The notes under the pieces: generated by a model
Seen by the model: the letters and a program-made list of their open reading frames with translations, nothing else
The model's database searches: none
What the model was told of the DNA's origin: nothing
Part shown: positions 522 through 58,035 of the stretch, in pieces
How the letters are laid out: every line of letters begins with the position of its first letter
Position numbering within the stretch: position 1 is the first letter of the stretch
From: Candidatus Collierbacteria bacterium
GTDB lineage: Bacteria; Patescibacteriota; Microgenomatia; UBA1400; JACPES01
Direction of reading: 5' to 3'
DNA: 64,000 nucleotides
Assembly (NCBI GenBank): GCA_016183365.1
Contig: JACPES010000002.1
Span: 93,831-157,830 of the forward strand
Made by a program: the position numbers and the translations under genes

Positions 522-2216
522 ATGAGATATTCTAAATTGGTAGGAAAAACGGTCAGGAACGCCCCGGCGGATGCGATTTTCGACAGCCATAAATTATTGT
601 ATAAAAGCGGATTTATCCGTGAGTCTACCGCCGGAAGATATTATTTTTTGCCTCTGGGTTGGCGGGCGCATCAAAAAATTGCCAAAATAGTCAGGGAAGA
701 AATGGACCGAATTGGCGGTCAGGAGATGATTGTGCCGGTTCTTCAACCTTTACACTTATGGCAGGAAACCAACCGGACGGCTTCGGTCGGGTTTGAATTG
801 ATGACCATTAAAGACGGCCGGGAATTCCAATTCGCTTTAGGGGGAACGGCCGAGGAAATGTTTGTGGATTTAGTCCGCAATCTTAAATTAAGTTATCGGG
901 ATCTGCCGTTTAATATTTATCAGTTTTCCACTAAATTCCGGGATGAAATCCGGGCCAGGGGCGGATTATTGCGGGTCCGGGAATTCGTGATGAAAGACGC
1001 CTATTCGTTTGACCGCGACGAAACAGAATTTAAAAAAACTTATCGGCAGATGGCCGAAACTTATACCAAAATTTTTAAGAGGTTAGGATTAGAAACGCTT
1101 AAAGTCGAAGCCGACAATGGCTACATCGGCGGCGAATATTGCCATGAATATCAGGCGGAATCTCCGATCGGGGAGAGCAGATTTTTTGTGTCCGAAGACG
1201 GAAAATATTCGGTTCACGCCGATGTCGCCAAATTCAAACGGGATGACAAAAACATTGGCGAACAATTAAAACCTTATCGCGAGATAAAAGCTGTCCGCGG
1301 CACCACCATGCAAGACGGCGTCAAACTTCATGGGCTTCCCTTATGGCAGCAAATCAAAGATTTTATGGCGGTTGACGAAAATGGAAATTTAATTTTGGCG
1401 GTCATTAGGGGAGATCTGGACGTCAATGAGATCAAACTCGCTCACGCTGCCGGCTGTCATCATCTTCGCCATGCTACAGCTGAAGAAATCCACGCCCTTG
1501 GCTCTGAACCCGGCTTTATCTCTCCGGTTGGCTTAAAAGGCAAAGTCAAAATTATCGGCGATCCATCCCTAAGAACTATCCGCAACGCTTACGGCGGCGC
1601 CAATGGTCTCCACCGTGACGCCGTCAATATGAACATTGACCGCGATTACACCGTTGACATTGAGGCGGACATCGCCATGGCCCAATCCGGGTTTTCCACC
1701 GAAGATGGGAAATCTAAATTGGTGGAAAAACGGGGGATTGAAGTTGGGAATATTTTTCAACTGGGATATCACTATACAAAGCTGATGAAAGGGGCTAATT
1801 TTATTGACGAAGACGGAAAAGAAAAACCATATTATATGGGTTGTTACGGGATTGGGATTGGCCGGACCATGGCGGCGATTGTGGAAAAATATCATGATAA
1901 GAAGGGGATTGTTTGGCCGGAAGCGGTGGCGCCTTACGATGCGCACGTCGTAGAAGTAGGGAGTAAGGAGTATGGAGTAAAGAAAAAAGCAGAAGGAATA
2001 TGTAAGCAATTAGAACAAGCCGGAATTGAAGTTTTATGGGACGACCGGGATTATGTTTCGGCCGGAGTAAAATTTGCCGACGCCGATTTGATCGGAATTC
2101 CGTGGAGAGTGGTGGTGAGCGAGAGGCTGGGGGATAAGGTGGAGCTGAAGGCAAGAAATTCGAGTCTGACAGAAGAATTGACTGTTGATCAGTTGATTTC
2201 AAAACTAAAAGTTTAG
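522..2216 (+). CDS. proS: prolyl-tRNA synthetase (bacterial-type, with editing/insertion domain)
   Basis: The 578-aa ORF carries class II aaRS motifs and a ProRS-like N-terminus, MRYSKL, beginning at the in-frame ATG at 522. The ORF track opens at 480, which is probably upstream of the true start. Confidence 0.9.
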   Translation: MRYSKLVGKTVRNAPADAIFDSHKLLYKSGFIRESTAGRYYFLPLGWRAHQKIAKIVREEMDRIGGQEMIVPVLQPLHLWQETNRTASVGFELMTIKDGREFQFALGGTAEEMFVDLVRNLKLSYRDLPFNIYQFSTKFRDEIRARGGLLRVREFVMKDAYSFDRDETEFKKTYRQMAETYTKIFKRLGLETLKVEADNGYIGGEYCHEYQAESPIGESRFFVSEDGKYSVHADVAKFKRDDKNIGEQLKPYREIKAVRGTTMQDGVKLHGLPLWQQIKDFMAVDENGNLILAVIRGDLDVNEIKLAHAAGCHHLRHATAEEIHALGSEPGFISPVGLKGKVKIIGDPSLRTIRNAYGGANGLHRDAVNMNIDRDYTVDIEADIAMAQSGFSTEDGKSKLVEKRGIEVGNIFQLGYHYTKLMKGANFIDEDGKEKPYYMGCYGIGIGRTMAAIVEKYHDKKGIVWPEAVAPYDAHVVEVGSKEYGVKKKAEGICKQLEQAGIEVLWDDRDYVSAGVKFADADLIGIPWRVVVSERLGDKVELKARNSSLTEELTVDQLISKLKV

Positions 2217-2217
2217 T

Positions 2218-2303
2218 GATTTACGATTTAAGATTTATGAATCCGAAATCCATAATACAGAAAATGTTTTTTTCGTAAATCATAAATCATTATTCATAAA
2301 TCA
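2218..2303. repeat. intergenic repeat element family A (gatttacgattta ... ttcgtaaatcataaatcattattcataaatca), copy 1
   Basis: The 32-bp core ttcgtaaatcataaatcattattcataaatca is identical at 2272-2303 and 5811-5842. Both copies also share the left arm gatttacgattta(a/t)a. Internally the element is an imperfect palindrome and sits immediately upstream of a start codon. Confidence 0.8.
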
Positions 2304-3878: not shown

Positions 3879-4007
3879 GTTATCAGTTCTCGGTTCTCGG
3901 TTATCAGATTTTAGTTAACCGGTTTTCAGTCTGCCAGTTTCAAAACAGGCGAACCGAAAACTGATAAACTTGTAACTGAAAACCGAAAACAGAAAACCGA
4001 TAACCGA
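3879..4007. repeat. long imperfect inverted repeat built from ctcggtt/ccgaaaac words between ybeY and dnaX
   Basis: tatcagttctcggttctcggttatcag ... ctgataaacttgtaactgaaaaccgaaaacagaaaaccgataaccga. The arms are reverse complements with mismatches. It is probably a terminator and/or regulatory structure. Confidence 0.5.
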
Positions 4008-4012: not shown

Positions 4013-5485
4013 ATGACATTCTATCTAAAATATCGCCCCAAAACTGTGGAAGAATTGGATTTGGTTAAAGTCAGAGACAGGTTGTCGGGGATAATCAAAA
4101 CGGGTAAATTCGGCCACGCTTATTTGTTTTCCGGTCCCCGCGGAGTCGGAAAAACTTCGGCGGCCAGAATTCTGGCCCGTTTAGCCGGAGCCGAGGGAAT
4201 TGATATTATCGAAATGGACGGGGCCAGCAACCGCGGGATTGACGACGTTCGGGAATTGCGGGAAAAAGTCGGTCTGTCTCCGCTATCGGGAAAACGGAAA
4301 GTCTACATTATCGATGAAGTCCACATGTTGACCGCGGAAGCGTTTAACGCCCTCTTAAAAACTTTGGAAGAACCGCCGGAACACGTCATCTTTTTTCTGT
4401 GCACCACTGAACCGCAAAAACTCCCCAAAACCGTTATCAGCCGTTGTGTCGAAGTTAAATTTGATAAAGCCGCTAATCAGGAAATCATCGATTCGGTTAA
4501 AAGATCTGCAAGGAGCGAAAAATTGGGAATAACCGCGGAAGCTTTGGAAAGAATAGCTAAATCGGCCGATGGCAGTTTCAGGGAGGCCCAAACGATTTTA
4601 GAAGAAGCCGCCGAAATATCAGGATCAAATAAAATTGATATATCGGCAGTAAATTCCGTAATCGGAGTTTCGTTGGATAGTTTGGTAAATGATTATGTTG
4701 AGGCGGTGGTTGCCGGGAAAACTACAATAGCACTCCAAGCGGTAGAAAAATTGCTATCTTCCGGCGGGGACATAATGGCATTTGCCAAAGAAATTCTGGA
4801 AGAAGTCAGAAAGCGGTTGCTTAAAAGTTTTGACGCCAGATTGTTGACGGTGGCTAAAGTTTTGGAAATAAAAATCAGAACCTTAAAATATTCCGTTCTG
4901 CCGCATTTGCCTTTGGAGATTGCGGCGATTGAATTGGGGATGGGAAGGAAAAGCGGAGAGGTTGAGGGGCCCCAAAGTATGCTTGCCACGAGCCAGAGGC
5001 TTCCAGCCTCGCGCTCCCGTGGAGCGCAACTTCGGGGTTCGGATGTACCAACAGATTTTTCTAAGAAGAAAAATCTGGGTCCATCCGAAAAAACCGACAT
5101 AAATAAAGAATCATCCATTATCCATCATTCATCATCCATTAATCTTGATACTTTTAGAAGTCAGTGGCCTCAGTTGCTGACTGAAGTCAGAAAAAAGAAT
5201 CATGGCATCGTTACGTTGCTGTCTTTATGTCGGCCGGTAGAGGTGGAAGGCTCGGCCGTGATTGTCGAAACCGCTTATAAATTCCATATGGAGCAATTAA
5301 ATTTAGACCGATTCAGCCAGATTATTGAACAGACGGCCAAAGATATTTATGGAACTCCGGTTCAATTGAGGTACCGTTTGGCTGACAAAACAGTTGAAAC
5401 ATTGAAAAATAACTCTCTAGATGATAATATTGTGGCGGTTGAAGAAGAATTAAGCGTTTCAGCAGAAGAAATGTTTTTATCATGA
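4013..5485 (+). CDS. dnaX: DNA polymerase III subunit gamma/tau
   Basis: AAA+ clamp-loader motifs GPRGVGKTS and DEVHML and the SRC box (VISRC), followed by a low-complexity linker. Confidence 0.9.
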   Translation: MTFYLKYRPKTVEELDLVKVRDRLSGIIKTGKFGHAYLFSGPRGVGKTSAARILARLAGAEGIDIIEMDGASNRGIDDVRELREKVGLSPLSGKRKVYIIDEVHMLTAEAFNALLKTLEEPPEHVIFFLCTTEPQKLPKTVISRCVEVKFDKAANQEIIDSVKRSARSEKLGITAEALERIAKSADGSFREAQTILEEAAEISGSNKIDISAVNSVIGVSLDSLVNDYVEAVVAGKTTIALQAVEKLLSSGGDIMAFAKEILEEVRKRLLKSFDARLLTVAKVLEIKIRTLKYSVLPHLPLEIAAIELGMGRKSGEVEGPQSMLATSQRLPASRSRGAQLRGSDVPTDFSKKKNLGPSEKTDINKESSIIHHSSSINLDTFRSQWPQLLTEVRKKNHGIVTLLSLCRPVEVEGSAVIVETAYKFHMEQLNLDRFSQIIEQTAKDIYGTPVQLRYRLADKTVETLKNNSLDDNIVAVEEELSVSAEEMFLS

Positions 5486-5745: not shown

Positions 5746-5748
5746 CCT

Positions 5749-5842
5749 GATTTACGATTTATAAATTATGAATTATGAATGAAAGATAAAAAAATTTAAG
5801 AAATGTATTATTCGTAAATCATAAATCATTATTCATAAATCA
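5749..5842. repeat. intergenic repeat element family A, copy 2 (upstream of recR)
   Basis: See copy 1; the 32-bp core is identical. Confidence 0.8.
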
Positions 5843-5850: not shown

Positions 5851-6462
5851 TTGCGAATTCCCAGAGCTATCTCCGATCTTACCAATCAGTTCGAAAGGCT
5901 TCCCGGCATCGGCCCCAAAACCGCTCAACGCTTAACTTTTTACCTTTTACACGTCCCCCAAAATGTTTTGGATGAATTTTCCAAAGCCGTTGCCGAATTG
6001 AAGCGCGGGACAGTCCAATGTTCTGTTTGTCAAAATGTTGCAGAAGTTGATCCGTGTCCGATTTGCGCCGATTCCGGCCGGGACGATTCGGTTTTAATGG
6101 TGGTTGAACATCCTTTGGATGTTTTTGTGGTAGAACGGGCCGGGGTGTTCGGCGGAGTTTATCACGTCCTCCACGGCTTGATCTCGCCTTTGGAGAACAT
6201 CGGGCCGGATGAATTGTTTATTAAAGAACTGCTTGAGAGGCTGAAAAATGATAAAATACGCGAAATTGTCCTGGGGTTGAATCCGACGATGGAAGGCGAA
6301 GCCACGGCGTTGTATCTGAAAAATAAAATCAACGAGTTACGAGCCATGAACCATGAGCTAAAAATCACTCGTCTCGGCCAAGGAATGCCCACCGGCGGCG
6401 ACATCCAATACGCCGATGAATCAACCCTAAAACAGGCGATGGAAGGAAGAAGGGGGTACTAG
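5851..6462 (+). CDS. recR: recombination protein RecR
   Basis: Helix-hairpin-helix motif LPGIGPKTAQRL, a C4 zinc finger (CSVCQNV...CPIC) and a Toprim region. The start codon is apparently TTG. Confidence 0.9.
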   Translation: MRIPRAISDLTNQFERLPGIGPKTAQRLTFYLLHVPQNVLDEFSKAVAELKRGTVQCSVCQNVAEVDPCPICADSGRDDSVLMVVEHPLDVFVVERAGVFGGVYHVLHGLISPLENIGPDELFIKELLERLKNDKIREIVLGLNPTMEGEATALYLKNKINELRAMNHELKITRLGQGMPTGGDIQYADESTLKQAMEGRRGY

Positions 6463-9917: not shown

Positions 9918-10430
9918 ATGCCTCAACCGGTGTTAGGAAATCAGGTTTTGCAGGATACTTTTGAGAAATTGGGTGATCAGGTTCAAGATGTAGTTTCCGG
10001 CTTTAAAGATTTGGCGACAGGTGGAAATGACAGTATAGGAGGGGATAATGGGATTGAGCAATTATCTGGTCAAAATGATCCGAAGTCCGGCATAGCCGGA
10101 TCTAACTCCGTGGGACAAACTGCCGATCCTCAAAGGTTAGCTCAAAGACAGGCCGAAGAGCAGGAAGCGGTTAAATTTCACCGGGAACAAGTCCAAAAAT
10201 GGGATGATAATTACAAGCGGATGAAAGAAGAAGATGAGGTCGAAAGCCGCAAAAAAGAGGAAGAAGAAAAAAAGAAAGAAGAACAAAGAATTTTCCAATT
10301 GCGGGAACAGGATGCCAGGTCGGCAGTTCTAAATCCGGTTAAACCGGGCACTGCCAAAGGGCCGGGGAGCGCGTTTGCCACGCAGTCAACAAAATCACAG
10401 ACGGAATTTTCAAAAAGCGCGACACAATGA
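9918..10430 (+). CDS. hypothetical low-complexity, charged (E/K-rich) protein
   Basis: The ORF-track N-terminus overlaps cysS on the other strand, so the start is more likely at 9909/9918. Composition suggests intrinsic disorder. Confidence 0.35.
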   Translation: MPQPVLGNQVLQDTFEKLGDQVQDVVSGFKDLATGGNDSIGGDNGIEQLSGQNDPKSGIAGSNSVGQTADPQRLAQRQAEEQEAVKFHREQVQKWDDNYKRMKEEDEVESRKKEEEEKKKEEQRIFQLREQDARSAVLNPVKPGTAKGPGSAFATQSTKSQTEFSKSATQ

Positions 10431-11104
10431 ATTGGGAAACACTTGAGCGAATCGGTTTAGTTTTAATGCTGCTGGGCTTTGCCGTTGTCGGTTGGCTGCA
10501 ATGGGGGACGTTCAGTCAAAATTCTGAAGTCCTGCGGAGGTTGACGGTGGTTGAACAAAGGTTGGATAGCGTGATAAAGAGTTCGTTAACCGTTAATCGT
10601 CAATCGTTAATGGCGACGGAAGAATGTGATCGTGAATGCGTCAAAAATTTAGTCAGCGAAGCGGTGGCGACTATTTCTGGTTTGTCCCAGCCGGCTAAAC
10701 AACAGGTTATAGAAAGAGTGGTAGAAAAAGTCCAAACCGTGTCCGGCAACTCTCCAAAAACTCAATATGTGTCTTTGGGCGCGGGTGAAACTACTAGCAC
10801 AGAATGGGTTACCCTTCCCGGAGCCGAAGTGACATTTAACATCAACGATTTCGGCAAGGTGACAGTGGTCTATTTTGAAGGTCAATTGCAAAGCGCTTCC
10901 GGGAAGGTTTATGCCAGATTGTACGATAAAAACGCCGGACCGCTTCTTGAGTCGGAGATATCTCACGCCGCCGGCGACGCTAAACTAATCAGCGCTAGGG
11001 TCAATATTTCCGGCGGGGGCCGCACAATCGGAGTTCAACTGAAAAGCGAAATTCAACAGCCGGTGAAACTCTTAAGCAGCAGGTTGAGGATAGACACAAA
11101 ATGA
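10427..11104 (+). CDS. hypothetical membrane-anchored (N-terminal TM) extracytoplasmic protein
   Basis: N-terminal hydrophobic helix IGLVLMLLGFAVVGWL. Translationally coupled to the upstream ORF. Confidence 0.4.
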   Translation: MNWETLERIGLVLMLLGFAVVGWLQWGTFSQNSEVLRRLTVVEQRLDSVIKSSLTVNRQSLMATEECDRECVKNLVSEAVATISGLSQPAKQQVIERVVEKVQTVSGNSPKTQYVSLGAGETTSTEWVTLPGAEVTFNINDFGKVTVVYFEGQLQSASGKVYARLYDKNAGPLLESEISHAAGDAKLISARVNISGGGRTIGVQLKSEIQQPVKLLSSRLRIDTK

Positions 11105-14713: not shown

Positions 14714-14745
14714 TTCAATTCTCCGAAATAATCGCTAGTTTTCGT

Positions 14746-14964
14746 TTAGCTATTTAATTCTTCTTTGGAGATTTTGCTTTCACGAAGAATGGAAAATAGC
14801 GTGCCTTCTGGAATTTCCCGTAAATGAAACGGTACATTGGCGCGAAGATTCGTTTTTGGATGTCTGAAAATCATATGGCTACCGGTGGTCCTTTGTAGAA
14901 TAAAGCCCAATTTTTCCAACTTACGGATAAATTCTTTGGGTTTGATGGCCGGAAGTTTTCCCAT
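14746..14964 (-). CDS. hicA: HicA-family mRNA interferase toxin
   Basis: 72 aa; KLGFILQRTTGSHMIFRHP (YcfA/HicA fold with a conserved His). Confidence 0.8.
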   Translation of the reverse strand: MGKLPAIKPKEFIRKLEKLGFILQRTTGSHMIFRHPKTNLRANVPFHLREIPEGTLFSILRESKISKEELNS

Positions 14965-14967
14965 GTA

Positions 14968-15225
14968 TCAAACAGCTACTTGAGGAAATCTAAAATCGAG
15001 AACAGACAAAAAGGATTGATCGTCAGAGGGGATTTCTTCCCCGTCTTCTCTCATACATTCTACAAATCCACCAATGGCGTCGATAGCCATTCTTCTGGCC
15101 TCATCCAACGTTCTGCCATATGTCACACAACCCTGCAAACTGGGGACAACTACAGTATAACCCCCTTCAGGCTCGGGCTGAAAAATAACATTAAATCTCA
15201 ATATTCTTTCTGAAATTTTATTCAT
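14968..15225 (-). CDS. hicB: HicB-family antitoxin (UPF0150, RNase H-like fold)
   Basis: 85 aa; FQPEPEGGYTVVVPSLQGCVTYGRTLDEA is typical of the HicB N-domain. It lies immediately upstream of hicA in the same operon. Confidence 0.75.
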   Translation of the reverse strand: MNKISERILRFNVIFQPEPEGGYTVVVPSLQGCVTYGRTLDEARRMAIDAIGGFVECMREDGEEIPSDDQSFLSVLDFRFPQVAV

Positions 15226-15261
15226 ATACCTATTTTACCACGCCAAATAATTTGTTACTTT

Positions 15262-15420
15262 AGAGTCACGCTTCAGCAGTCGGAGTAGCAGCCTTTGGGA
15301 TTTTCAGCTGGCAAGTTTGGGTAATATCGCCTATATTTCCTTCTAAAATTTCCTCCAAATTGTGCCAAGAGCGATTGATCCGGTGATCGGTAACTCTATT
15401 TTGGGGCCCGCCGAATTTTA
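15262..15420. pseudogene. diverged duplicate of the htrA 3' end (RVTLQQSE*) together with a prfA 3' end fragment (PQNRVTDHRINRSWHNLEEILEG...)
   Basis: The 17-bp string acgcttcagcagtcgga is identical at 14693-14709 (true htrA end) and 15268-15284. The minus-strand translation of 15266-15410 is about 70% identical to the prfA C-terminus. Confidence 0.55.
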
Positions 15421-15483
15421 GCACTCGGCTTTAGGTTCTATTCGAACACGTCTCGTGCTGCAATTTCTGGCGGGCTCGCAAAG

Positions 15484-16482
15484 TCAGTCAAGGAGTTGTT
15501 GCACTTCACTTATGATTTCTTCTAAACCTCCCTCAAGAACAACATCGAGGTTATGCCATGACTTGTTAATTCTATGGTCGGTAATTCTATTTTGCGGGAA
15601 GTTGTAGGTTCGGATTTTTTCGGCTCTGCTTCCACGACCTACCGCTGTCGTCCGTTGCTGCTCTAAAGTTTTAAGCGTCTTTTCTTGTTCTATTTCCCAC
15701 AATTTAGACCGCAATAGCTCCAGAGCTATGGATTTATTTTGTTGTTGGGTTCTTTCTTGTCTGACGGAAATAACCAGACCACTGGGAATATGGGTTAACC
15801 GGACAGCCGTGCTGACTTTATTTACATTTTGACCGCCTGGTCCGCCGGAATGGGAAAAAGCCCACGCCAATTCATTATCTTTGATTTCAACTTCTAAGGG
15901 AGTGATTTCCGGCAAAACTACTACCGATGCGGTCGAAGTGTGTATCCGGCCGTGGGATTCGGTTTGGGGGATCCGCTGGACCCGGTGAACGCCTGATTCG
16001 AATTTTAATAAGCCATAAGGTCCAACCTGTGATTCTGAATTCTGAATTCTGAATTCTGAATTTGGCGCGCCGGCAACTTTTATTATGCCGTTGTCTATAA
16101 CGACGGTTTTTAATCCAATAATATCGCAAAATCTGCTGTACATCCGCGCCAGGTCTCCAACCCAGATTTTAGCCTCATCTCCTCCGGCTCCGGGGCGGAT
16201 TTCGATGGTGGCGAAACGGGACAATAATTGCTGATTGTCCCGGCTTTGCCGAGTATCCCGCTTCGCCCTGTACCAGACGGTACGGGGCTCCGCGGGATTA
16301 ATTGTTGATTGTTGATTGGAGGATTGTTGAAAGTTAATGCTTTGCCCCAAAACCCGTTTTTGGTCTTCCAATCTTTGTATTTCTTCTTGGGCCAGAGCCG
16401 ATAATTCCGGATCATTTAACAATTGCCGATTGCGGGAGATTTCAAATTCTAGTCGTGAAATTTCATTCTGAAGATCGTTCAA
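15484..16482 (-). CDS. prfA: peptide chain release factor 1 (shortened N-domain; tripeptide motif PQT)
   Basis: GGQ motif (SGGPGGQNVNK) and GVHRVQRIPQTESHGRIHTS, which matches the RF1 PxT region. The start is TTG and overlaps the stop of a short upstream uORF. Confidence 0.88.
   Translation of the reverse strand: MNDLQNEISRLEFEISRNRQLLNDPELSALAQEEIQRLEDQKRVLGQSINFQQSSNQQSTINPAEPRTVWYRAKRDTRQSRDNQQLLSRFATIEIRPGAGGDEAKIWVGDLARMYSRFCDIIGLKTVVIDNGIIKVAGAPNSEFRIQNSESQVGPYGLLKFESGVHRVQRIPQTESHGRIHTSTASVVVLPEITPLEVEIKDNELAWAFSHSGGPGGQNVNKVSTAVRLTHIPSGLVISVRQERTQQQNKSIALELLRSKLWEIEQEKTLKTLEQQRTTAVGRGSRAEKIRTYNFPQNRITDHRINKSWHNLDVVLEGGLEEIISEVQQLLD
16032..16059. repeat. 7-bp x4 tandem repeat (attctga) inside prfA
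   Basis: gattctgaattctgaattctgaattctgaattt encodes NSEFRIQNSES. Confidence 0.8.
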
Positions 16483-25037: not shown

Positions 25038-25091
25038 TAATAAATTGCTATATTGCTAAATTGTTCTATTGTTTGCTGTCCGCCAATTAAC

Positions 25092-25115
25092 AATCTAATA
25101 ATCTAATAATCTAAC
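25092..25115. repeat. 8-bp x3 tandem repeat (aatctaat) abutting the dnaB start codon
   Basis: caatctaataatctaataatctaacaATG. Confidence 0.7.
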
Positions 25116-25116
25116 A

Positions 25117-27750
25117 ATGAGTTCTCTTAAAGTTCCGCCTCATTCGGAAGAAGCCGAGAAATCAGTATTGGGCGCGATTTTGCTGGACAGCGAAGCCATC
25201 GTTAAGGTAGCCGAATTTTTACGAGCTGAACACTTTTATGATCCGTCGCATCAATCTATTTTCGCGGCTGAATTAGCCTTATATGAAGAGCGCAGCCCGA
25301 TAGATTTGGTGACAGTCTCCGATAAGCTTAAAAAGCTTAAGCAGTTGACGGAGATCGGGGGTTCTGACTATTTGGCTAAATTGGTGAGTGGGGTTCCGAC
25401 GGCTGCCAATATCGTCAGCTATGCCAAATTGGTTAGAGACTGTTTTACCAAAAGAGAATTGGTCCGGCTTTCCGGGGAAATGTCCACTTCCGCTTTGGAC
25501 GAAAGCCGGGAAGTAGTCGAGATTTTAGACGAGGCGGAGCAGAAAATCTTTTCATTATCCCAGCAGCAAATGCGTCAGGGATTTATTTCGGTTAAGGACG
25601 CTTTGGCCGAAAGCTTTGACCGGTTGGACGAAATTCAAAGAGCCGGGTCGGGACTGCGGGGAGTGGCTACCGGATACAATGAATTGGATGGAGCTTTGGC
25701 CGGACTGCAAAAAAGCAATTTAGTGGTTTTGGCCGCCCGGCCGGGAATCGGGAAAACTACTCTGGCTTTGAATATTGCCCAATACGCCGCGGTTACCAGT
25801 AAAGTTCCGGTCGGCTATTTTGCTTTGGAAATGAGCCAGGAGGAAATGGTGGACAGGATGTTGGTAGCTCAAGCGGACATTGACGCTTGGAAATTCAAGA
25901 TAGGAAAATTCAAAGACGAAGATTTTAACCGCTTGTCGGAGGCTTTTGGAATTTTGGCCGACGCCCCTTTTTATATTGACGATACTCCAGCTCTATCTAT
26001 TATGGAAATGAGGACCAAAGCCCGGCGGTTAAAGTCAGAACATCAGGTGGAACTTCTGATAGTTGATTATTTGCAGTTAGCCCGGTCGCGTAATCTGGAA
26101 AATCGGGTTCAGGAAGTTTCGGAAATCAGCCAAGGTTTAAAAAATCTGGCCCGGGAACTGAAGGTGCCGATATTGGCGCTGTCGCAATTGTCCCGGGCTG
26201 TCGAACATCGGGAAAGAAAAAGACCGCAACTGGCGGACTTGCGGGAGTGTTTGACCGGAGACACTCTGATTCTCATGGCCGATACCGGTGAATTATGCAA
26301 AATAAAAAATTTGGTTGGTAAAAGCGGATTCAAAGTGTTTTCTTTGGGTAAAGATAATAAATTAATAATTAGCAAAGTCAAAGAGGCAATTAATAGCGGC
26401 CAGAAAAAGATTTATTCGCTTTCCACCCAATCCGGCAGAACAATCCGCTGCTCTTTGAATCACCCGTTTTATACTTTGCTGGGATGGCAGAAGTTAGAAA
26501 CGATTAAAGAAGGAGAATATATTGCCATCCCGCGCGATTTACCAATTGATGCGAAAATCCGGCCCAAGCTTTTGGATACCGAAGCCAAAATAAGACTTTT
26601 GGGACACATGTTAAGAGACGGCAGTTTTATTCCCAGACGAATTTTGCAATATACATCCGTAAATTCGAAAAATCTGAAACAGGTGAGCATGGATGCCAAA
26701 AATTCATTTGCAGTTAACACCAGAATAGTGAAAAAACGAAATTGGTATCAAGTATATTTTACGAGTGTCCGACGGGTAAGTAAGAATTATAGAAATCCCA
26801 TGGTGCAGTGGTTGGATGATTTGGGTATTTGGGGATTGCGTTCACCGCAAAGATTTATACCCGGCGATGTATTTCTGTTGCCGCTTGACGATATCAAATT
26901 ATTTTTACGGCATTTATGGGCGACTGACGGATGCGTGTGGATTGCTGGAAATCAAATCCGGGTAAAGATTTATTACGCCACGGCCAGTAAAATATTTGCC
27001 AAAGATGTCCAGTCTCTTTTATTGAGATGCGGCATCTTGTCAAATATTCACATAAACAGGAAAAAAGGATTTGGAGATGGATATCATGTTTGTGTTGATA
27101 GCCGGGAGATGCAGACAAAATTTATCCAAGAAATCGGAGGGTTCGCCGACAGATTTGACCTAGTAAAAAAAGCCAAATTGATATTAGCCAAAATCAAACC
27201 CAATCCAAACTTGGATATTATTCCCAAACAGGTGTGGCCAATAATTGATCGGATGCGTAAAGCTAAAAAAATAACTTGGCGGGGCTTTGCTGAATTGTTA
27301 AAAATGTCTTACTGCGGCTCAACATTGTTTAAGTCAGGAATTAGTCGAGAGAGAATAAGAAGAATGGCGGTTTTCTTGGATGATTCAAAGATTTGGAATT
27401 TGGCGGATTCTGGAATTTATTGGGACAAAATTTCTTCGGTGAGATCTGAAGGAACTGAAGATGTTTATGATCTTCAGGTTGAAGGATCGCACAATTTCGT
27501 GGCCAATGATATTTTTGTGCATAACAGCGGAGCGATCGAGCAGGATGCCGACGTGGTGATGTTTTTGTACCGCGAAGACGAAGAAAATCAGGAAAATTTA
27601 ATTTTAGATATCCAAAAACACCGCAACGGCCCTCTACGTCGGATCAATCTTTTCTTTAGAGGCGACAGAATCAGATTCTACGGGGTGGAGCGGGGAGCGG
27701 ATAGGGGCGAAACCAAAGCCAAGCCGGTGAAGGAAAAAGATAAAGATTAG
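25117..27750 (+). CDS. dnaB: replicative DNA helicase DnaB, interrupted by an in-frame intein
   Basis: 877 aa. Walker A (ARPGIGKTT), then ...LADLRE | C...HN | [18 protein letters not shown]. With the intein removed the extein is 451 aa. Confidence 0.9.
   Translation: [877 protein letters not shown]
26248..27525 (+). mobile_element. DnaB intein (426 aa) with a LAGLIDADG-type homing endonuclease domain
   Basis: It begins with Cys (CLTGDTLIL, Hint block A) and ends VHN immediately before the extein Ser. Internal [11 protein letters not shown] and [12 protein letters not shown] are LAGLIDADG-like motifs. The insertion point is the classic DnaB site between RE and SG. Confidence 0.8.
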
Positions 27751-33926: not shown

Positions 33927-34786
33927 ATCAAAAAACAAAAATAAAGGCAATTATTTTTTGGTTTTCCGCATTGCTCTTTGCTCTTTGCTCTTTGCTCTTT
34001 GCTCTCTTCTGGTTTCGCGGTTGGAATGGCAAAGAACCAATAAATGTCGTAGTAGCGTCCGGAGAAAAGATCTGGGTTTTAGGGGTAAGGGCGGCAGAGA
34101 AACGATTAGTGGAAATATCTGTTCCGGGAAATACCATCGTGACCGTGGGTAGAGGAAAGTGGCAGGCCAGATCTTTGGGGAGATTGTCCAAGTTGGAGAA
34201 GTCTCCGGATGTTTTGAAATCGGTCGGTTGGGCATTGTTGGAAGTTCCGGTTGACTCTGTGGCCGAAATTTCTGACTATGAAGGAGAAAACACTGGTTAT
34301 TTCAGTCAATTAAAATTATTAAGCAGGTTTAATTTTACGTCTTTAACGGAAACGATTAAGTTGATCCGTTTTATTAAGGGTTTAAACGATAATCAAGTTT
34401 TGAAAATAAATATCGGGGAGACAATGGTGGCCAGAATCATAACCGATCCAGCCGGAACAGAATTAATGGAAGTCGATTCTGAAGCTTTGTCTTTGCAGTT
34501 GGCTGAATGGTTTAAAATCGAATCTTTACGAAATGAAGGTTTGGCTGTGGCTATCATAAATACCAGTGGAAAAACTAATGCCGGAAGTAAATTAGCCCGC
34601 CAGTTGGAGCACGTGGGTTTACGGGTGGTGTCGGTTTCTTCCGGAGAGGGGACTCCCGGAATAACAATTAAGCAAAAATCTATAGCCAACTCTGAAACTG
34701 TCCGGAAAATATCCGGTTGGTTAAACTTAAAACCAATTGTAGCTGATTTTGACGAAAGGGCGGATATTTTGATAGTGATAAAATAG
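33914..34786 (+). CDS. membrane-anchored protein with LytR_C-like C-terminal domain (LCP-associated)
   Basis: N-terminal TM helix; C-terminal VAIINTSGKTNAGSKLARQLEHVGLRVVSV resembles LytR_C. Confidence 0.45.
   Translation: MVRMNQKTKIKAIIFWFSALLFALCSLLFALFWFRGWNGKEPINVVVASGEKIWVLGVRAAEKRLVEISVPGNTIVTVGRGKWQARSLGRLSKLEKSPDVLKSVGWALLEVPVDSVAEISDYEGENTGYFSQLKLLSRFNFTSLTETIKLIRFIKGLNDNQVLKINIGETMVARIITDPAGTELMEVDSEALSLQLAEWFKIESLRNEGLAVAIINTSGKTNAGSKLARQLEHVGLRVVSVSSGEGTPGITIKQKSIANSETVRKISGWLNLKPIVADFDERADILIVIK
33972..34006. repeat. 7-bp tandem repeat (tgctctt x4 plus a variant) inside the CDS
   Basis: ttgctctttgctctttgctctttgctctttgctctc encodes LLFALCSLLFALF in the TM segment. Confidence 0.8.
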
Positions 34787-34789: not shown

Positions 34790-34929
34790 ATAGAATGCTT
34801 GAAGATAGAGGATAGATACCCTTGATCTTGAATTCTTGAAGCATTGATGTCTTGATCAAAAATTCAATAAATCAAAGATATCGAGGTCAAGAATTTCAAA
34901 AATATCCATCTTCAAGAAATCTAAACTAT
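34790..34929. repeat. intergenic element family C copy upstream of yebC
   Basis: cttgaagatagaggatagata ... catcttcaagaaatc. Confidence 0.6.
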
Positions 34930-35481: not shown

Positions 35482-35535
35482 CCTGCAGAGCAGGATCTCG
35501 CTTCGCGAGATTAGATTGTTAGATTGTTTATTTTT
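35482..35535 (+). terminator. probable intrinsic terminator after yebC (hairpins cctgcagagcagg and atctcgcttcgcgagat, then a T-run)
   Basis: Seen directly. Related gcagg/cgcttcgc hairpin words recur at 37181-37212 and 58510-58540. Confidence 0.5.
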
Positions 35536-35589
35536 AAGGTTTAACCGAAGCAATCTAGCAATTTATCAATATAGCAATTAAGTTTTTCA

Positions 35590-36354: not shown

Positions 36355-36543
36355 TAACAGAATCTAGAGTAGAGGATAGGAGGCTCATAAATCAACTTTT
36401 CACGGATATATCATTATATTTTCACAAGCTGGCAGTCGGGATGGAAAAGTGATAGTTGATATAGTTTGATAATGATATCAGGATGTGGATAACTGGTATG
36501 TAGGATGACAGAAAAAACCCGAAGAGGGATTGGGATCTTCCAA

Positions 36544-36989: not shown

Positions 36990-37100
36990 GTGGTGATTGA
37001 ATATCGAAAATAGAAGATAGATAGTTTCCATTTTCTATTTTCAATCTTCTAACCCTATCTTCCATCTTTCTATCTTCTATCGTCTTAGAATTTACGAAAG
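36990..37100. repeat. hairpin-rich element (aatagaagatagatag ... ctatcttccatctttctatcttctatc), related to family C
   Basis: Direct and inverted copies of the gaagatag word. Confidence 0.5.
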
Positions 37101-39927: not shown

Positions 39928-42534
39928 TTAGTCTTCTTTCTCAATCGTAGCTACGGCGGCGACGAAATCTGTTTTGTCTGACAATCTGACTAGGATAACT
40001 CCTTGGGTTGGGCGCTTTAAGACCGGAATGTTTTTCAACGGCAGTTTTATGGCTTGGGCTTTGGAGGTGGTAATGACTATGAATTCGTCTAAATCGGTAG
40101 CTAGAATAGCGGCGGCGACATTACCGGTTTTATCGTTTATGACAGCCACTTTTACTCCTTGTCCGCCGCGGTTTTGGACCGGATATTCGGTGATAGCGGT
40201 CCGTTTCCCAATCCCCTTTTCGGTGACTACCAACAATTCACGGAAAACCTTGCGGCGTTTATCCGGCGAGCTAATAGTCGAGGACGGCAGAACTGTCATT
40301 GATAACAGTTGGTCGGTTTTGGACATTTCTATGCCTTTAACTCCTTGGGTATCCCGGCCGGTCGATCGGACGTCTTTTTCCGAAAACCTGATGGCTTTAC
40401 CGTTATATGTCGCTAGTAGAATATGGTCATCGTTGGAAGAAGCCATCACTTTTACTAATTCGTCTCCGTCTCTCAAATCTATGGCGATCAGGCCGGAACT
40501 TTTGATATTGGCGTATTGGCTAATGGAAGTTTTTTTGATTAATCCGTGTTTGGTAGCGGCCACGATGAATTTTGTCTGGCTGTCTTTAGAAATTGTCAGA
40601 GTGGACCTAATAGATTCATCTTGTGATAAATTCAATAAATTGACAATCGCTTGGCCCTTGGCTAGTCTGCCGCCTGACGGAAGTTCGTAAGCCTTTAGGC
40701 GGTAAACCTTGCCCAAATTGGTGAAGAAAAGAATATCGTCATGAGTATTGGCGGTCAGGATGGTAGAAATAGCGTCTTCTTCTTTGGTTTCCATGCCTTT
40801 AACCCCTTTGCCGCCGCGGCGCTGGGAGCGGTAAATGTCAGACGGCATTCTCTTGATATATCCAGTTTCAGTGATGATGATGATAACCTCTTCCTGCGGT
40901 ACCAGATCCAAGTCCGAAAACTCGCCGATTTTTCCTTTAATCACTCTGGTTTTGCGGCCGTCTGCGTAGGTTCCTTTTAGATAATTCATTTCTGAAATGA
41001 TTTCCGCCAAAATATTTTTGGGGTCAGACAGCAGAGCGGTTAATTTCAAGATCATTTGCTTGATGCTTTCGTACTCGGCGACTAATTTCTGTCGTTCCAG
41101 GGCGGCCAGTTTCTTTAACTGCATTTCCAAAATAGCGATGGCCTGGAGTTCGGAAAATCCGAATTTGCTGATTAAACTTAATTTGGCCTCATCGGCATCT
41201 TTGGATTTTCTGATTGCGCTTATGACTTCGTCTAAAATATCAATGGCTTTCAGCAAACCTTCCAGGATATGATTGCGGGCTTTGGCTGCTTTCAGGTCAA
41301 ATTGGCTGCGGCGGACGACTACGACTTGGCGGTGCCTGACGAATTCCGATAAAATTGTTTTTAAATTCATCAGTTGCGGAATTCCATGAGAGGTCAGGGC
41401 GACAATATTGGCCGGAAAAGTTGTCTGCAATTCAGTGTATTTGTAAAGTTGGTTGAGGATGGCTTTGGGGACAGAATCCTTTTTTAAATCCACGGCAATT
41501 CTTAATCCGTCGCGGTCAGATTCATCCCGCAGATCGGCTATGCCTTCAATCCGTTTTTGTTTGACTAAATCGGCGATTTTGGCCACTAATCTGGCTTTAT
41601 TAACCTGATAAGGGATTTGGGTAATGATTATCTGGAATCTGCCTTGCCTGGTTTCTTCGATGGCGGCTACCCCGCGGACGACAATACTGCCGCGGCCGGT
41701 CGAATAAACATCGGCAATGATTTGGGCGTCATAGATGATTCCGCCTGTCGGAAAATCCGGACCTTTGACAAACTGTAGCAAATCCGAGATACTGGCTTCG
41801 GAAGAGAAATCACCGGCAATTAGCGATGGATCTGCAGTCTCGAGTTGGGATATTTCCGGTACACTTTGAGTTTTCTGAATACTTCCCTTCTCGATTAACT
41901 CGTGTATTGCGTCGCAAACCTCGGTTAAATTGTGGGGCGGAATTTTAGTCGCCATCCCGACCGCGATTCCGTCAGACCCCATCAATAACAGATTGGGAAC
42001 TTTTGCCGGCAAGACCGTCGGTTCTCTTTGGCTGCCGTCGAAGTTATCCATAAAATCCACGGTTTCTTTTTCTAAATCTGCCAAAATTTCAGCGGTGATT
42101 CGTTCCATTCTGGCTTCGGTATAACGCATGGCGGCCGGCGGATCACCGTCGATTGATCCGAAATTTCCCTGGCCGTCCACCAGCCTGTATCTCATCGAGA
42201 AATCCTGGGCTAACCGGACCAGGGCGTCATATACCGCCATATCTCCGTGGGGGTGATATTTCCCCAAAACTTCTCCGACAATTCTGGCGGTTTTTTTGTA
42301 TGTCGAGCCTTTGGTCAGCCCCAGGCCTTTCATCGTATACAGAATCCGGCGATGGACCGGCTTTAGGCCGTCGCGGACATCCGGCAGGGCCCGGGCCACT
42401 ATAACGCTCATGGCGTAGTCCAGGTATGATCGTTCCATCTCGGTAGTGATAGCCACGGATTTGACTAAGCCGTAATCGGTTTTGGTGAGTTGATCTATGA
42501 TTGAACTGTTATCCATACAATCTTTTCGAAACAC
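39928..42534 (-). CDS. gyrA: DNA gyrase subunit A
   Basis: 868 aa with the active-site Tyr region ([10 protein letters not shown]), QRDR-like motifs and C-terminal beta-pinwheel repeats. Confidence 0.95.
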
Positions 42535-42639
42535 TCGGAAAACTCAGAAATCCGGATAATCGGATACTCGGAGAGTCGGATTTTCAGATAATCTGATTGT
42601 CTGAATTTCTGGCTATCAGAGTATTCTGAGTGTTCTGAA

Positions 42640-50265: not shown

Positions 50266-50302
50266 TTAATAAATTATATGAGTGCGAGAGGAGGTGAAAA
50301 AA

Positions 50303-55339: not shown

Positions 55340-57413
55340 CATTTAATCCCACTGTTAACAACAGCGCCGCCGCCGCCATTGGACCAAATTTATGTAGATA
55401 ACTCGGTGTTTTCCACGTCAAATCCACATCCCCCCGGGCCCACAAAAACATATAGCCTGGAGTCACCCAAACTGGTTGGGAATAACTTCCGTTTCCGGTC
55501 GCGACCCAGTATGAGCTATAGGTAAACTTTATAAATATCGGCGCGGGATTAGGGGAGTCGACAGAAAAAGAAATTTTGGTCGGTTCGATTTTAAGATTGT
55601 TAATTTCCGGTTGAGTAAAATTAACTGCCGGCGGAATTTCGGGCAATTCTCTAACAATTAACTCTGATCTGTCGCTATTGATCCACCATTCACCCAGGTT
55701 GACGTTTTTGTCTAACCGGGGAACTTGAGATAAAGCTTCAACTAGAGGTTTAGTAGAAATTGTTTTGAGGTAATAGCGGGCTTGAAGTTGAGAACCGTCA
55801 GGTTCATCTAACATCAGTTTGGCAAATTCCGTGGCGCCTTCCGGCAATTCATCCTGTCCGTAGATGGTGGCGGTAACCAAGTTTATGCCCAAAATATCAG
55901 CAGTTTTGCCAATATCCAGCTCTAATTTTGGCCGTTTATCTAAATCACTAAAATCCGTTTCGTAGGTTCCATTTTTTCGGCTGTAGGGATCAATAGAGTT
56001 TTTCAGATTGTAATAAATCAATCCGTAGGGCGAGGATTCAAAAAACAATCCGGTGGTGCCGATTAAATTCTTGTTTTCTGCCGCTAGAAAATGTTCGGCA
56101 GCGTGAGGCAGTTGAAACACCTGGGCGTGACGCGAAACATCTATAACTCTTTGGGTGGCATCCCGGGCAGGGAAATCCAGCCAATCCAATTTCAGCCTAA
56201 CTTTTGGGTTATAGCTTCTAATTAGAAGAAGAATGACACCTAAGGCGATTACTCGCTGGGCCGCCGCAGAGAATTTTAAATCCGGCAGGTTTTGAGCGAT
56301 TACCAGAGGGACAAATAACTGAAAATACCAGGCGAAGCGATAGAAATGAATTCCCCTGATGCCGATTGATTGGAGGGAAATCGCGCTGACCTTGTCCAAC
56401 GCCGCTAAAACGGCTAGAATTAATGTTAAAACAGTCAAAGGCCGTTTTAGAGATTGAGAATTAATCGCCAAAATTAAGACGGAAAAAGCAATTATCCAGT
56501 GGATCAGAGGTGGGACTTCGGTCAGATTAAAGGCTCCGGCGGCGAAACTTGGGTCCAGCATGACCAGAATCCAAGGCAAACCGATGATGGCAGAAACAGT
56601 CATGGTTAAAATCCATTTTTTTATCTCCTCCTGGTTTTTGTTTTTATATTCGGTTATAAATGAGATCCCCAGAAAAATTAAGGCGACTATGGCGGTAAGC
56701 GGATGGGTTAGGAAAATTAGTCCCAACAAAACTGCCCGCTCGGGCCAAGTTTTGATAGACATAAACAGAAGCAATAACGCGGTAGCCAAAAGAGCCGGAC
56801 CGCCGCCGGTATAGACGGTGCCAAGGTAGGAGCCCAACATTCCGGGGCCGGAATAAAGAAACACCAATTGCATGGAGACTGCGGCTAAAATTCTTTTAGA
56901 TGGCGAAATTTTAAACTTCCCTGTTAATTTCCAGATGCCCAGCGTCAACAGTAAAAAACTAATGATTGTTATCGCGGCCGCGGCTGTTTTTTCTGATTCC
57001 GAAAAATTAATCAAAATTTTGAACAAGTAGTGGTATCCCCAGGGATACCGGCCGGTGGGATATCCGCCCCAAAAGCCGGTATCCCAGCCATTCTCCCAGG
57101 GAATCCAGTATAACTGTTGGGCTTTCTGGATATGTCCAGGCCAATCCCAGTACCAGATAAAATTGGGGTTTTGGGAAAAGAACATCAGAGTTTTGCCGAC
57201 AATCAAAATTGCTGTTAGAATATAAATGACGTTAGTTTTTTTGAGCCTAGTCGAAGAAACTAGCGAGGCAATGAATTTTTTCACCTCTGTATTATACATT
57301 GAAGGCGCCGTATTTGGAGCGGCTATCGGGAGTTTTTTGGGAGCGGTGATAGAGAGAGCAAAAAACAAAAAACAAAAAACAAAATTACTGTGGGGGCGGA
57401 GCTGGTGCGGCAA
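55317..57413 (-). CDS. large polytopic membrane protein with a C-terminal extracytoplasmic domain (GT-C / YfhO / oligosaccharyltransferase-like)
   Basis: 698 aa, with aromatic-rich loops (WDWPGH..WENGWDTGFWGGYPTGRYPWGYHY). The start is uncertain: 57413, 57299 or 57158. Its 5' end overlaps the pilD 5' end on the other strand. Confidence 0.4.
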   Translation of the reverse strand: MPHQLRPHSNFVFCFLFFALSITAPKKLPIAAPNTAPSMYNTEVKKFIASLVSSTRLKKTNVIYILTAILIVGKTLMFFSQNPNFIWYWDWPGHIQKAQQLYWIPWENGWDTGFWGGYPTGRYPWGYHYLFKILINFSESEKTAAAAITIISFLLLTLGIWKLTGKFKISPSKRILAAVSMQLVFLYSGPGMLGSYLGTVYTGGGPALLATALLLLFMSIKTWPERAVLLGLIFLTHPLTAIVALIFLGISFITEYKNKNQEEIKKWILTMTVSAIIGLPWILVMLDPSFAAGAFNLTEVPPLIHWIIAFSVLILAINSQSLKRPLTVLTLILAVLAALDKVSAISLQSIGIRGIHFYRFAWYFQLFVPLVIAQNLPDLKFSAAAQRVIALGVILLLIRSYNPKVRLKLDWLDFPARDATQRVIDVSRHAQVFQLPHAAEHFLAAENKNLIGTTGLFFESSPYGLIYYNLKNSIDPYSRKNGTYETDFSDLDKRPKLELDIGKTADILGINLVTATIYGQDELPEGATEFAKLMLDEPDGSQLQARYYLKTISTKPLVEALSQVPRLDKNVNLGEWWINSDRSELIVRELPEIPPAVNFTQPEINNLKIEPTKISFSVDSPNPAPIFIKFTYSSYWVATGNGSYSQPVWVTPGYMFLWARGDVDLTWKTPSYLHKFGPMAAAALLLTVGLNVIWRRVE

Positions 57414-58035
57414 TTGTAAAAGACAATTAAATTGGCGGGAAAATATTCCGTTGATTTCTTTTGTGTTCTTAAAAGGTAGATGCCGGACGTGCCGCTCCCC
57501 TATCCCCTACTGGCTGCCGTTGATTGAGTTGGCGGGGGCCGCCGCGGGCGCCGCTGTAGCGGCGCAAATAGGACTCATAAGTCTCATAGGACTTATAGGA
57601 CTTATTCTCGTAGCCGCGGCGCTGATTTGGGTGTTTTTTTCTGATTTGGTCTACGGGGTAATTCCGGATTTGGCGGTGGGGATCGGAGCCATAGGCTCCG
57701 TAATTTTCAATTTTCAATTTTCAATTTTCAATTTTGTTATAGCGGCACTTGGCGCGGCGGCATTTTTCTATTTTTTGGTTTTAGTAACCCGCCGCCGGGG
57801 GATGGGAATGGGCGACGCCACCCTGGCCGCGTTTTTAGGCCTATGGCTTGGTTGGTCCAAGATTTTATTGGCGGTGTGGCTGGCTTTTATTTTGGGAGCC
57901 GTAGTGGGATTGATCTTAATAGGGTTAAAATTAAAAAAGTTTGGACAAACTATTCCGTTCGGACCGTTTTTAATCGCGGCTTCTATAATTGCCGCCATGG
58001 CCAATGACAGTTGGATGAATATAATCGGATTATGA
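57271..58035 (+). CDS. pilD: prepilin peptidase (A24 family) PilD
   Basis: N-terminal tetracysteine (C..C...21...C..C: CGNCKRQ...CRTCRS) and Asp boxes (MGMGDATL). Contains 7-bp repeats. Confidence 0.8.
   Translation: MNFFTSVLYIEGAVFGAAIGSFLGAVIERAKNKKQKTKLLWGRSWCGNCKRQLNWRENIPLISFVFLKGRCRTCRSPIPYWLPLIELAGAAAGAAVAAQIGLISLIGLIGLILVAAALIWVFFSDLVYGVIPDLAVGIGAIGSVIFNFQFSIFNFVIAALGAAAFFYFLVLVTRRRGMGMGDATLAAFLGLWLGWSKILLAVWLAFILGAVVGLILIGLKLKKFGQTIPFGPFLIAASIIAAMANDSWMNIIGL
57702..57729. repeat. 7-bp x4 tandem repeat (aattttc) inside pilD; a second (aaaaaca x3) lies at 57361-57381
   Basis: aattttcaattttcaattttcaattttc encodes FNFQFSIFNF. aaaaacaaaaaacaaaaaaca encodes KNKKQKTK. Confidence 0.8.

Follow-up and report, generated by a model that had tools for sequence, protein, structure and literature searches.

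We analyzed a 64-kb stretch (the window) of the genome of one Candidatus Collierbacteria bacterium, a member of the candidate phyla radiation (CPR, or Patescibacteria). Short, perfect tandem arrays with a 7-nt unit lie within several of its genes, among them prfA, which encodes release factor 1 (RF1), a holB-like gene and pilD. These arrays are a new lineage example of a known, unexplained kind of repeat. On balance, we think it probable that the tracts are part of a genome-wide population of short-unit arrays, and that they are old, in-frame, tolerated passengers kept by slippage-type turnover.

Heptamer arrays in the window

An earlier note on this DNA had listed five perfect heptamer arrays inside open reading frames (ORFs). 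All five are present, within 1–6 bases of where that note had placed them:

16032..16062, minus strand: perfect (AATTCAG)x4.4 (ATTCTGA x4.4 on the forward strand) in prfA, ORF 15484-16482; encodes NSEFRIQNSE
33971..34005, plus strand: perfect (TTGCTCT)x5.0 in ORF 33914-34786; encodes LLFALCSLLFAL in the N-terminal membrane helix
45451..45482, minus strand: perfect (CTCAACG)x4.6 (TTGAGCG on the forward strand) in the holB-like ORF 45344-46111; encodes LQRSTLNAQRS
57359..57384, plus strand: perfect (CAAAAAA)x3.7 in pilD site 1, a loop before the Cys motif; encodes KNKKQKTK
57702..57735, plus strand: perfect (AATTTTC)x4.9 in pilD site 2; encodes IFNFQFSIFNF

Non-overlapping arrays were counted with Tandem Repeats Finder (TRF) and compared with 30 third-order Markov simulations:

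Period 6: 1 TRF array observed, 0.6 expected
Period 7: 20 observed, 1.3 expected
Period 8: 10 observed, 2.3 expected
Period 9: 9 observed, 2.0 expected
Period 10: 8 observed, 2.5 expected

Period 7 is enriched 15-fold, while periods 5 and 6 are at background. These counts bear out the view that the tracts are non-random, with a common unit length and about four to five copies. Heptamers are also elevated over units of 6, 8 and 9 nt, the comparison by which the earlier note proposed to judge its idea; what that note overlooked was the enrichment of periods 8–10, the intergenic majority of arrays in inverted hairpin pairs, and the analogy with heptanucleotide simple sequence repeats (SSRs) and the short tandemly repeated repetitive (STRR) elements of cyanobacteria. 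Perfect runs of at least three copies number five at period 7 (26–35 nt long, 3.7–5.0 units), and there are none in the window at periods 5, 6, 9 or 10. An independent lag-p run score gave five runs at period 7, four at period 14 (double-period readings of four of the five period-7 runs), one each at periods 9 and 11, and none at any other period from 4 to 15; the score in 40 simulations was 0.0. At least 17 different array units occur within the 64 kb.

For comparison, other genomes were scanned alike. Per 10 kb, there are 3.1 period-7 arrays in the window, 2.4–3.2 in two relatives from the Collierbacteria (L084 and L085 in our labeling of the comparison loci), and 2.9–3.4 in control loci from Nostoc and Aulosira. 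In most of 80 other genomes the figure is 0–1.5, and over 20 kb of the related L086 it is zero, which makes the trait lineage-specific. The control loci were genome contigs returned by a pattern search based on the RF1 alignment, with patterns that were too generic; close relatives are absent from this set (best identity 46%).

By a curated gene list, 87% of the window is coding. Arrays of period 7–11 number 28 in 8.3 kb of intergenic DNA versus 22 in 55.7 kb of coding DNA, a density ∼8.6-fold higher between genes. For period 7 alone, the densities are 1.09 per kb in intergenic and 0.20 per kb in coding DNA, ∼5.5-fold lower in genes. Proteins were also scanned for peptides of at least eight residues that only a heptamer array could produce. 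The chance expectation, calculated from the size of the peptide dictionary, is ∼0.02 per 30,000 residues. We found 18 matches in 120 RF1 homologues and 57 in 120 CPR pilD homologues; in real window genes the scan recovered five distinct arrays, ∼7-fold the rate of the control loci. Perfect GC-rich hairpins are ∼2-fold more numerous in the window than in simulations (7 versus 2.9), an excess too weak to serve as a basis for argument.

We considered whether AATTCAG, the unit of the prfA array, is itself a special, widespread element, and rejected the idea: (AATTCAG)3 has 13 matches in IMG/VR, versus 9 and 32 for composition-matched control heptamers. The metagenome contigs carrying (AATTCAG)3 (at least 120, L087–L206) range in GC content from 0.34 to 0.68 and come from very different genomes. 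Those listed are ∼4-fold enriched in other heptamer arrays, which often directly adjoin (peptides QKTEDRR, HSAFCIL and NLEPGTW). Heptamer-rich genomes thus occur in many lineages, including high-GC ones in which the arrays stay AT-rich.

Coding arrays and their orthologues

Each coding array is oriented so that none of the three frames holds a stop codon, and is therefore translated as a peptide with a 7-residue period (NSEFRIQ, LQRSTLNAQRS, LLFALCS, KNKKQKT, IFNFQFS). The tracts had been said to sit in intact housekeeping genes, and the host ORFs are indeed all open, intact and conserved. Pfam upholds the assignments of prfA (PCRF and RF-1), the holB-like gene (DNA_pol3_delta2) and pilD (A24_N_bact and Peptidase_A24). 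ORF 33914-34786, a 290-aa membrane protein, has no Pfam match, and the label 'LCP-associated' attached to it by the earlier note went unconfirmed. Further arrays in genes are imperfect or have another period:

57568..57602, plus strand: 9-mer array (ATAGGACTC x3.9) in pilD site 3; encodes IGLISLIGLIGL
6331..6358, plus strand: decayed four-unit array in recR (AACGAGT TACGAGC CATGAAC CATGAGC)
5110..5139, plus strand: imperfect (ATCATCC)x4.3 in dnaX, ORF 4013-5485; encodes ESSIIHHSSSIN
10583..10611, plus strand: imperfect (TCGTTAA)x4.1, 81% matches, in ORF 10427-11104
16301..16330, minus strand: degenerate CAACAAT-type heptamer array (ATTGTTG on the forward strand), 75% matches, in an N-terminal insert of prfA; encodes QQSSNQQSTIN
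1955..1980, plus strand: imperfect (AGTAAGG)x3.7 in proS, ORF 480-2216

The arrays at 16301 and 10583 are the weaker runs of the earlier note, real but slightly displaced from the positions it gave.

In prfA, the array encodes a loop between a beta-strand and GPYGLLKFESG, where solved RF1 structures have only a short turn. The AlphaFold2 (AF2) model has a coil here, with a dip in the predicted local distance difference test score (pLDDT) at residues 141–150. The window RF1 is 100% identical to an NCBI protein of Candidatus Collierbacteria; its next-closest relatives are groundwater metagenome proteins at 60–69% identity. Between 'GIIKVAG' and 'GPYG', L086 and several other relatives have one residue and no insert. 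L001 has the identical AATTCAG array, in L002 this array is split by a GC-rich insert of 39–40 nt, L084 has a different array (CCCTTAG x4.6), and L085 has a perfect palindrome with a 16-bp stem. Among the length changes between orthologues is one of 14 aa, in frame, whereas the window, L001 and L003 all have the same number of array copies. As for the second prfA array, the N-terminal insert (QQSSNQQSTIN) is found only in the window sequence within the RF1 alignment, and residues 55–82, which contain it, have a pLDDT below 50 and are predicted to be disordered. The model thus has both arrays in coil of low confidence.

In recR, whose proteins in the window and L085 share 90% identity, the decayed units of the window correspond in L085 to a perfect AACGCGC x4 of equal total length, and L084 has a version expanded by 14 aa. 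In homologues of ORF 33914 (38–73% identity) the helix is about as long, and several have a SLLxxxCSLL-like pattern; this array was therefore homogenized in place rather than inserted with a net gain. For ORF 10427, the orthologues in L084 and L085 retain a degenerate heptamer periodicity of equal length; its TCGTTAA unit recurs in holB site 2 of L207 and L208. The ATCATCC unit family of dnaX also yields the HPSSIIH peptides of P0047 (prfA) and P0253 (holB).

The holB site is empty in homologues at 34–36% identity, and other Collierbacteria have IHKSLFINHKS or HHPSSIIHHPS at the same place. The orthologous array of L264 is imperfect (TCAACGC/ACAACGC). P0251 has a 7-aa deletion at this site, the window and P0242 differ by 7 aa, and P0244 and P0249 have nested GC-rich inserts. 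At pilD site 1, the orthologues have ACAAACG x4.6 (L207), AAGGGAC/AAGGGCT x5 (L265) or nothing. Site 2 is taken up in L265 and L207 by a 9-mer array (TTAAGTAAC) with about the same total length, and the IFNFQFS peptide is present in ∼30 CPR pilD proteins. At site 3, L265 has ATAGGACTT x4.2. The earlier note had asked whether the peptide repeats are absent from orthologues; in prfA, holB and pilD they are absent or replaced. Among array-bearing database clusters at ≥90% identity, most show no length difference, and two, of near-identical pilD proteins, differ by an in-frame 18-nt indel inside the array. Taken together, these series suggest that the arrays are long-lived occupants of fixed sites, at which units are replaced and length stays in frame.

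Beside some coding arrays lie perfect GC-rich hairpins with 7-bp stems (pilD 57548-57565 and 57684-57700, dnaX 5011-5027), one of which, in pilD, directly abuts the AATTTTC array.

Perfect tracts of a unit that is not a multiple of three recall phase-variation (contingency) switches, which toggle the host gene by gain or loss of one heptamer, and pilD is tied to a surface structure. We nonetheless consider it very improbable that the arrays work this way. Core housekeeping genes (prfA, holB, dnaX, proS, recR) make up most of the hosts, rather than dispensable surface or host-interaction genes; pilD is the pilus-related case, two host ORFs are without a Pfam match, and every host ORF is intact. 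The number of copies does not change between independent assemblies, nor in a relative whose DNA is 73% identical, the polymorphisms seen are in frame only, and tracts of 4–5 units are short for efficient slippage. The analogy, which the earlier note itself doubted, is not supported and is by now largely refuted.

It is scarcely credible that the arrays are artefacts of assembly or sequencing, or that they mark where a transposon was excised. Assemblers run at k=31 can be misled by such tracts, as in one Logan contig, a probable chimera with its join exactly at the array. Yet the prfA array is present in four independent assemblies or pipelines (JGI, ENA, Logan and NCBI), and homologous arrays occur in hundreds of database proteins. 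An excision footprint is expected to hold two copies, not 4–5 perfect ones. The 'insertion footprints' of the earlier note fare no better, as they yield neither 4–5 perfect copies nor a change of unit in place at constant length.

The Logan contig in question (L003, SRR12113426_1180137, 1502 nt) has the N-terminus of GAPDH fused to prfA at the AATTCAG array, with the junction at 755; its bases 755–1502 are 100% identical to window 16063–15316. A k=31 assembly chimera is the probable explanation, and in that case the gap gene of the L003 organism would also hold the same array of at least 30 nt.

The region that separates htrA from prfA (14688-15484) holds a hicA/hicB toxin–antitoxin cassette (14746-14964 and 14968-15225, minus strand). 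On either side of the cassette is a remnant of what was once the 3' end of prfA: 15269-15427, which encodes the C-terminal 52 aa, and 14688-14714 (IIPTAEASL). 'PTAEA' is present on both sides. The intact prfA now has a different C-terminus, similar to that of other relatives. This arrangement looks like a cassette insertion with replacement of the prfA 3' end.

The gene content of the window (GC 39–47%) is that of ordinary housekeeping: proS, ybeY, dnaX, recR, a sigma-70 factor gene, cysS, rpsF, ssb, ctpB, htrA, prfA, rpmE, hisS, dnaB, efp, tgt, an xerC-like gene, gyrA, ppa and gyrB, together with the holB-like gene and a type IV pilus cluster that includes pilD. The dnaB gene (25117-27750, 877 aa) contains an intein with a LAGLIDADG homing-endonuclease domain. 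An intein is also present in gyrB of L264 (10900-14187, 1095 aa), whereas the window gyrB (673 aa) is without it. A YebC/TACO1-family ORF at 34852-35469 encodes only 205 aa, and its match to the second/third-domain model takes in 53 of 160 positions, so a truncated or split gene is possible.

Intergenic arrays and dispersed families

Intergenic arrays cluster at gene boundaries. Twelve of the 28 end ≤14 nt from a start codon, and eight begin ≤14 nt from a stop codon. The arrays occur as inverted pairs, with one arm 0–14 nt after the stop codon and the other ending 0–13 nt before the next start (for example 2218/2276, 3886/3974, 42619/42528 and 58956/58986). When seven intergenic regions were folded, four gave hairpins with z scores of –3.0 to –6.6, and the other three had z scores of –1.3 to –1.7. 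The four strong folds are long hairpins with a mismatch about once per unit. An Rfam scan of the window returned one tRNA only, and no array falls within a known RNA family. The main intergenic elements are:

2218..2303, plus strand: family A, (GATTTAx)n ... (TAAATCA TAAATCA TTATTCA TAAATCA), an inverted pair that takes up the spacer from stop to start; z –3.1
5748..5842, plus strand: second copy of family A, upstream of recR; z –3.0
3886..4007, plus strand: heptamers (GTTCTCG)n ... (AACCGAA)n as an inverted pair in the ybeY–dnaX spacer; –40.8 kcal/mol, z –5.3; a long hairpin, mismatched roughly once in 7 nt
42528..42638, minus strand: inverted 8/9-mer arrays filling the ppa–gyrA spacer; –48.9 kcal/mol, z –6.6
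37033..37085, minus strand: degenerate (GATAGAA)x7.6, the longest heptamer array of the window; member of a dispersed ∼80-nt family
25041..25118, plus strand: family B, a pair of 8-mer arrays (ATTGCTAT ... CAATCTAA) with its end at the start codon of dnaB
35511..35578, minus strand: reverse-complement copy of family B

Several of these elements recur, nearly identical, at loci that are not orthologous. Two copies of family A lie in the window and a third at another locus in L084, and the right arm of the 5748..5842 copy matches 2270-2303 without mismatch. The array at 37033..37085 aligns unit by unit with non-orthologous sequences in L264 (14670-14770) and L265 (11690-11800). It is clear that the intergenic hairpin elements undergo duplication and did not arise independently at each locus. 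The holB array of L207 and family A of the window share 24 nt exactly, a string that takes in the double-substitution unit TTATTCA. The units TTAACGA, ATCATCC, AAGAGCA and CAATCAG likewise recur across loci and genomes, in unrelated genes of different Collierbacteria.

Dispersal of this type is reminiscent of the small dispersed repeats (SDRs) of Nostoc punctiforme, which Elhai et al. reportedly described in 2008 as tiny, hairpin-forming, nested and present or absent at orthologous loci, conserved genes included. The whole population might consist of very small mobile or copy-pasted elements of that sort: an array of ∼30 nt or a hairpin of ∼90 nt would be copied by an enzyme or by ectopic gene conversion, and the coding copies would be rare in-frame survivors. 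We hold this to be possible, though unlikely. The preserved order of variant units in dispersed families, the shared 24-nt string and the recurrent units all speak for copying, as do the GC-rich mini-hairpins (∼15–45 nt) nested in relatives' arrays and a prfA array that is perfect within diverged flanks. Nested mini-hairpins, seen in arrays of L002, L208 and L209, invite comparison with SDRs and with repetitive extragenic palindromic (REP) sequences and REPINs (PMC3116915). Yet no common terminus or target-site duplication was seen at the coding arrays, and no transposase candidate, including any like the REP-associated tyrosine transposase (RAYT), was found among the window ORFs scanned, ∼12 of which are without a Pfam match. 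Unlike REP/REPIN elements, mobility here is indicated by dispersed copies only. Insertion does not predict that the unit changes in place while length is constant; a genome with hundreds of arrays should share some units by chance; and (AATTCAG)3 is no commoner in IMG/VR than its matched controls.

The positions of the intergenic pairs, exactly between a stop codon and the next start, and their good folding would also fit selected nucleic-acid signals: tandem heptamers bound by a protein, or RNA hairpins acting in processing, stability or translational coupling. Coding copies would then be kept perfect as the DNA or RNA sequence itself matters, and the prfA array is under stricter conservation than nearby synonymous sites. 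The same positional bias is seen for TAACTGA repeats upstream of starts (PMC4679880) and for STRRs, intercistronic heptanucleotide hairpins of unknown function found, for example, between hupS and hupL (PMC2670836). We nevertheless regard this account as quite unlikely. The coding arrays are solo, without an inverted partner; the units differ at orthologous sites of close relatives, so that no fixed sequence is conserved; and many relatives lack the array entirely, L086 having no period-7 array in its 20 kb.

Our preferred reading, of tolerated passengers kept by slippage-type turnover, would work as follows. The population would consist of arrays of about 4–5 units (26–35 nt), with units mostly of 7 nt and some of 8–10 nt, equivalent in kind to STRRs and to long simple sequence repeats (LSSRs). 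Outside genes, the arrays would occur as inverted pairs that form long imperfect hairpins filling stop-to-start spacers, and as dispersed families. Within genes they would be solo, in stop-free orientation, in loops or membrane segments that tolerate indels. Old at their sites, they would be repeatedly re-homogenized with turnover of the unit sequence, probably by slippage or template switching at replication, and selection would then eliminate outcomes with a net length change that is not a multiple of 3 nt. The arrays would remodel surface loops of housekeeping proteins rather than act as frameshift switches.

The in-frame length changes observed (7 aa in holB, 14 aa in recR and prfA, 18 nt in pilD) support this reading. 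Turnover of the unit in place at constant length (recR, ORF 33914, and pilD site 1 with three units in three genomes) supports slippage, and the large diversity of units, the lack of conserved termini and the lack of a globally special unit point to local slippage. Several observations weigh on the other side. Local slippage alone leaves unexplained the dispersed families, with three non-orthologous loci sharing the order of variant heptamers and family A in three copies, as well as the TTATTCA-containing string common to the L207 holB array and the intergenic copies of the window. The 42 nt made up of the prfA array and 10 bases of its flank exceed every other exact match between the prfA genes of the window and L001; an exact block of this length in genes 72.8% identical overall points to extra constraint or exchange. 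A gain of three units in one step is a non-standard outcome of slippage. The stability of arrays within populations is judged from few assemblies, and the genome coverage is 64 kb only. We also tried the hypothesis that coding arrays always add exactly three units to an existing one; it fits runs of 31–32 nt, not those of 26 or 34–35 nt, and was set aside.

Slippage and inter-locus copying likely both act. For the coding arrays, the best explanation is that they are solo arrays which the genes tolerate and which slippage-type events keep uniform, with an inferred enzymology; a slippage-prone replication process is plausible. The suggestion that a shared process lies behind the tracts stands, on a genome-wide scale.

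Other observations concern the surroundings of the arrays. Small GC-rich palindromic insertions (∼15–45 nt) lie within or replace heptamer arrays in L002 (∼1376-1415), L208 (793-1620), L209 (328-1116) and L085 (7679-8662); the L208 insert consists of two perfect 15-nt hairpins, TCCGGCGAAGCCGGA and TCCTGCTCCGCAGGA. Intergenic DNA of relatives has inverted pairs of 10-mer arrays around the palindrome TGTACA, one helical turn apart (L084 9945-10044; L085 7571-7670; L086 579-619 and 11781-11884; L001 2289-2393; L264 8142-8240; L265 777-875). Some are upstream of prfA, a site at which the window has no equivalent. The GATAGAA array sits in ∼1 kb without a convincing ORF or an Rfam match (36354-37378), next to the gene of a tyrosine recombinase (37378-38406). 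At 50234-50268, a perfect 11-mer array (TATATTGTAAT x3.2) lies 13 nt upstream of a start codon (50282), and the ORF that begins there has a prepilin-type N-terminal methylation motif.

Relation to known repeats and significance

Heptanucleotide STRR sequences were reportedly described in cyanobacteria by Mazel in 1990 and by Vioque in 1997. The window arrays resemble them in being short, numerous, mostly intergenic and hairpin-forming, with a 7-nt unit, and in having the same density as the Nostoc and Aulosira loci. They differ in their CPR host, in their units, in the translation of several arrays within essential genes, and in the 8–10-nt arrays that occur alongside. None of the window units listed is a canonical STRR unit such as CCCCAGT, TTGGTCA or CAACAGT, and the host is Candidatus Collierbacteria, not a heterocystous cyanobacterium.

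Heptamers are the dominant class among 5–11-nt units in phylogenetically scattered genomes, according to the LSSR survey of Mrazek et al. 2007 as summarized in PMC4679880, which attributes LSSR arrays to polymerase slippage and describes units other than 3n as depleted in coding DNA. The window arrays have these properties: they are head-to-tail arrays of 5–11-nt units, longer and commoner than chance, heptamers are the commonest unit class, and non-3n units are depleted in coding DNA, as the lower period-7 density in genes illustrates. The survey predates CPR genomes and includes none, and its description covers neither same-site turnover nor dispersed hairpin families.

Two further heptamers are close parallels. 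TAACTGA repeats occur in Beggiatoaceae, cyanobacteria and Bacteroidetes (MacGregor 2015, PMC4679880), and the GGGNATC repeats of Xanthomonas and Nostoc favour four units (Rehm 2015, PMC4692102). Like the arrays described here, they form arrays of 2–6 units, with about four preferred, just before starts or after stops, and a minority lies in ORFs and encodes 7-aa periodic peptides such as LSVISYQ. In those cases, however, one unit dominates per genome, whereas the window is diverse in its units. Since the units here are AT-rich, G-quadruplex formation cannot explain them. Borg elements (PMC9879509) have perfect, fast-evolving tandem repeats that add disordered peptide segments and leave ORFs unbroken, but their in-ORF units are all multiples of three. 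With a unit of 7 nt, the peptide period is 7 residues and only changes in multiples of 3 nt survive. In literature on CPR, Patescibacteria and Microgenomates, we found no description of heptamer arrays.

Heptanucleotide arrays (STRRs, LSSRs) have been known for decades, and their origin and function are without an accepted account. A small CPR genome with the same architecture and density, including inverted pairs, about four units and copies in genes, offers a compact system in which to study them. The orthologue series show that arrays persist at fixed sites in essential genes as the unit sequence turns over and length stays in frame, which argues against equating every non-triplet repeat in an ORF with a phase-variation switch. 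For annotators and assemblers, the arrays are a warning: they produce low-complexity peptides with a 7-residue period, and chimeric joins in k-mer assemblies are possible. A bolder idea, which we judge unlikely, is that some CPR lineages (Collierbacteria and, via pilD, Parcubacteria-type relatives) run an active, as yet undescribed process, enzyme-driven or by templated micro-insertion rather than passive slippage, that writes and rewrites ∼30-nt arrays of 7–10-nt units together with small GC-rich hairpins at specific positions across the genome, loops of essential proteins included. If true, this would parallel in CPR bacteria the STRR/SDR system of Nostoc, itself unexplained, and would supply proteins generally with new loop sequence.

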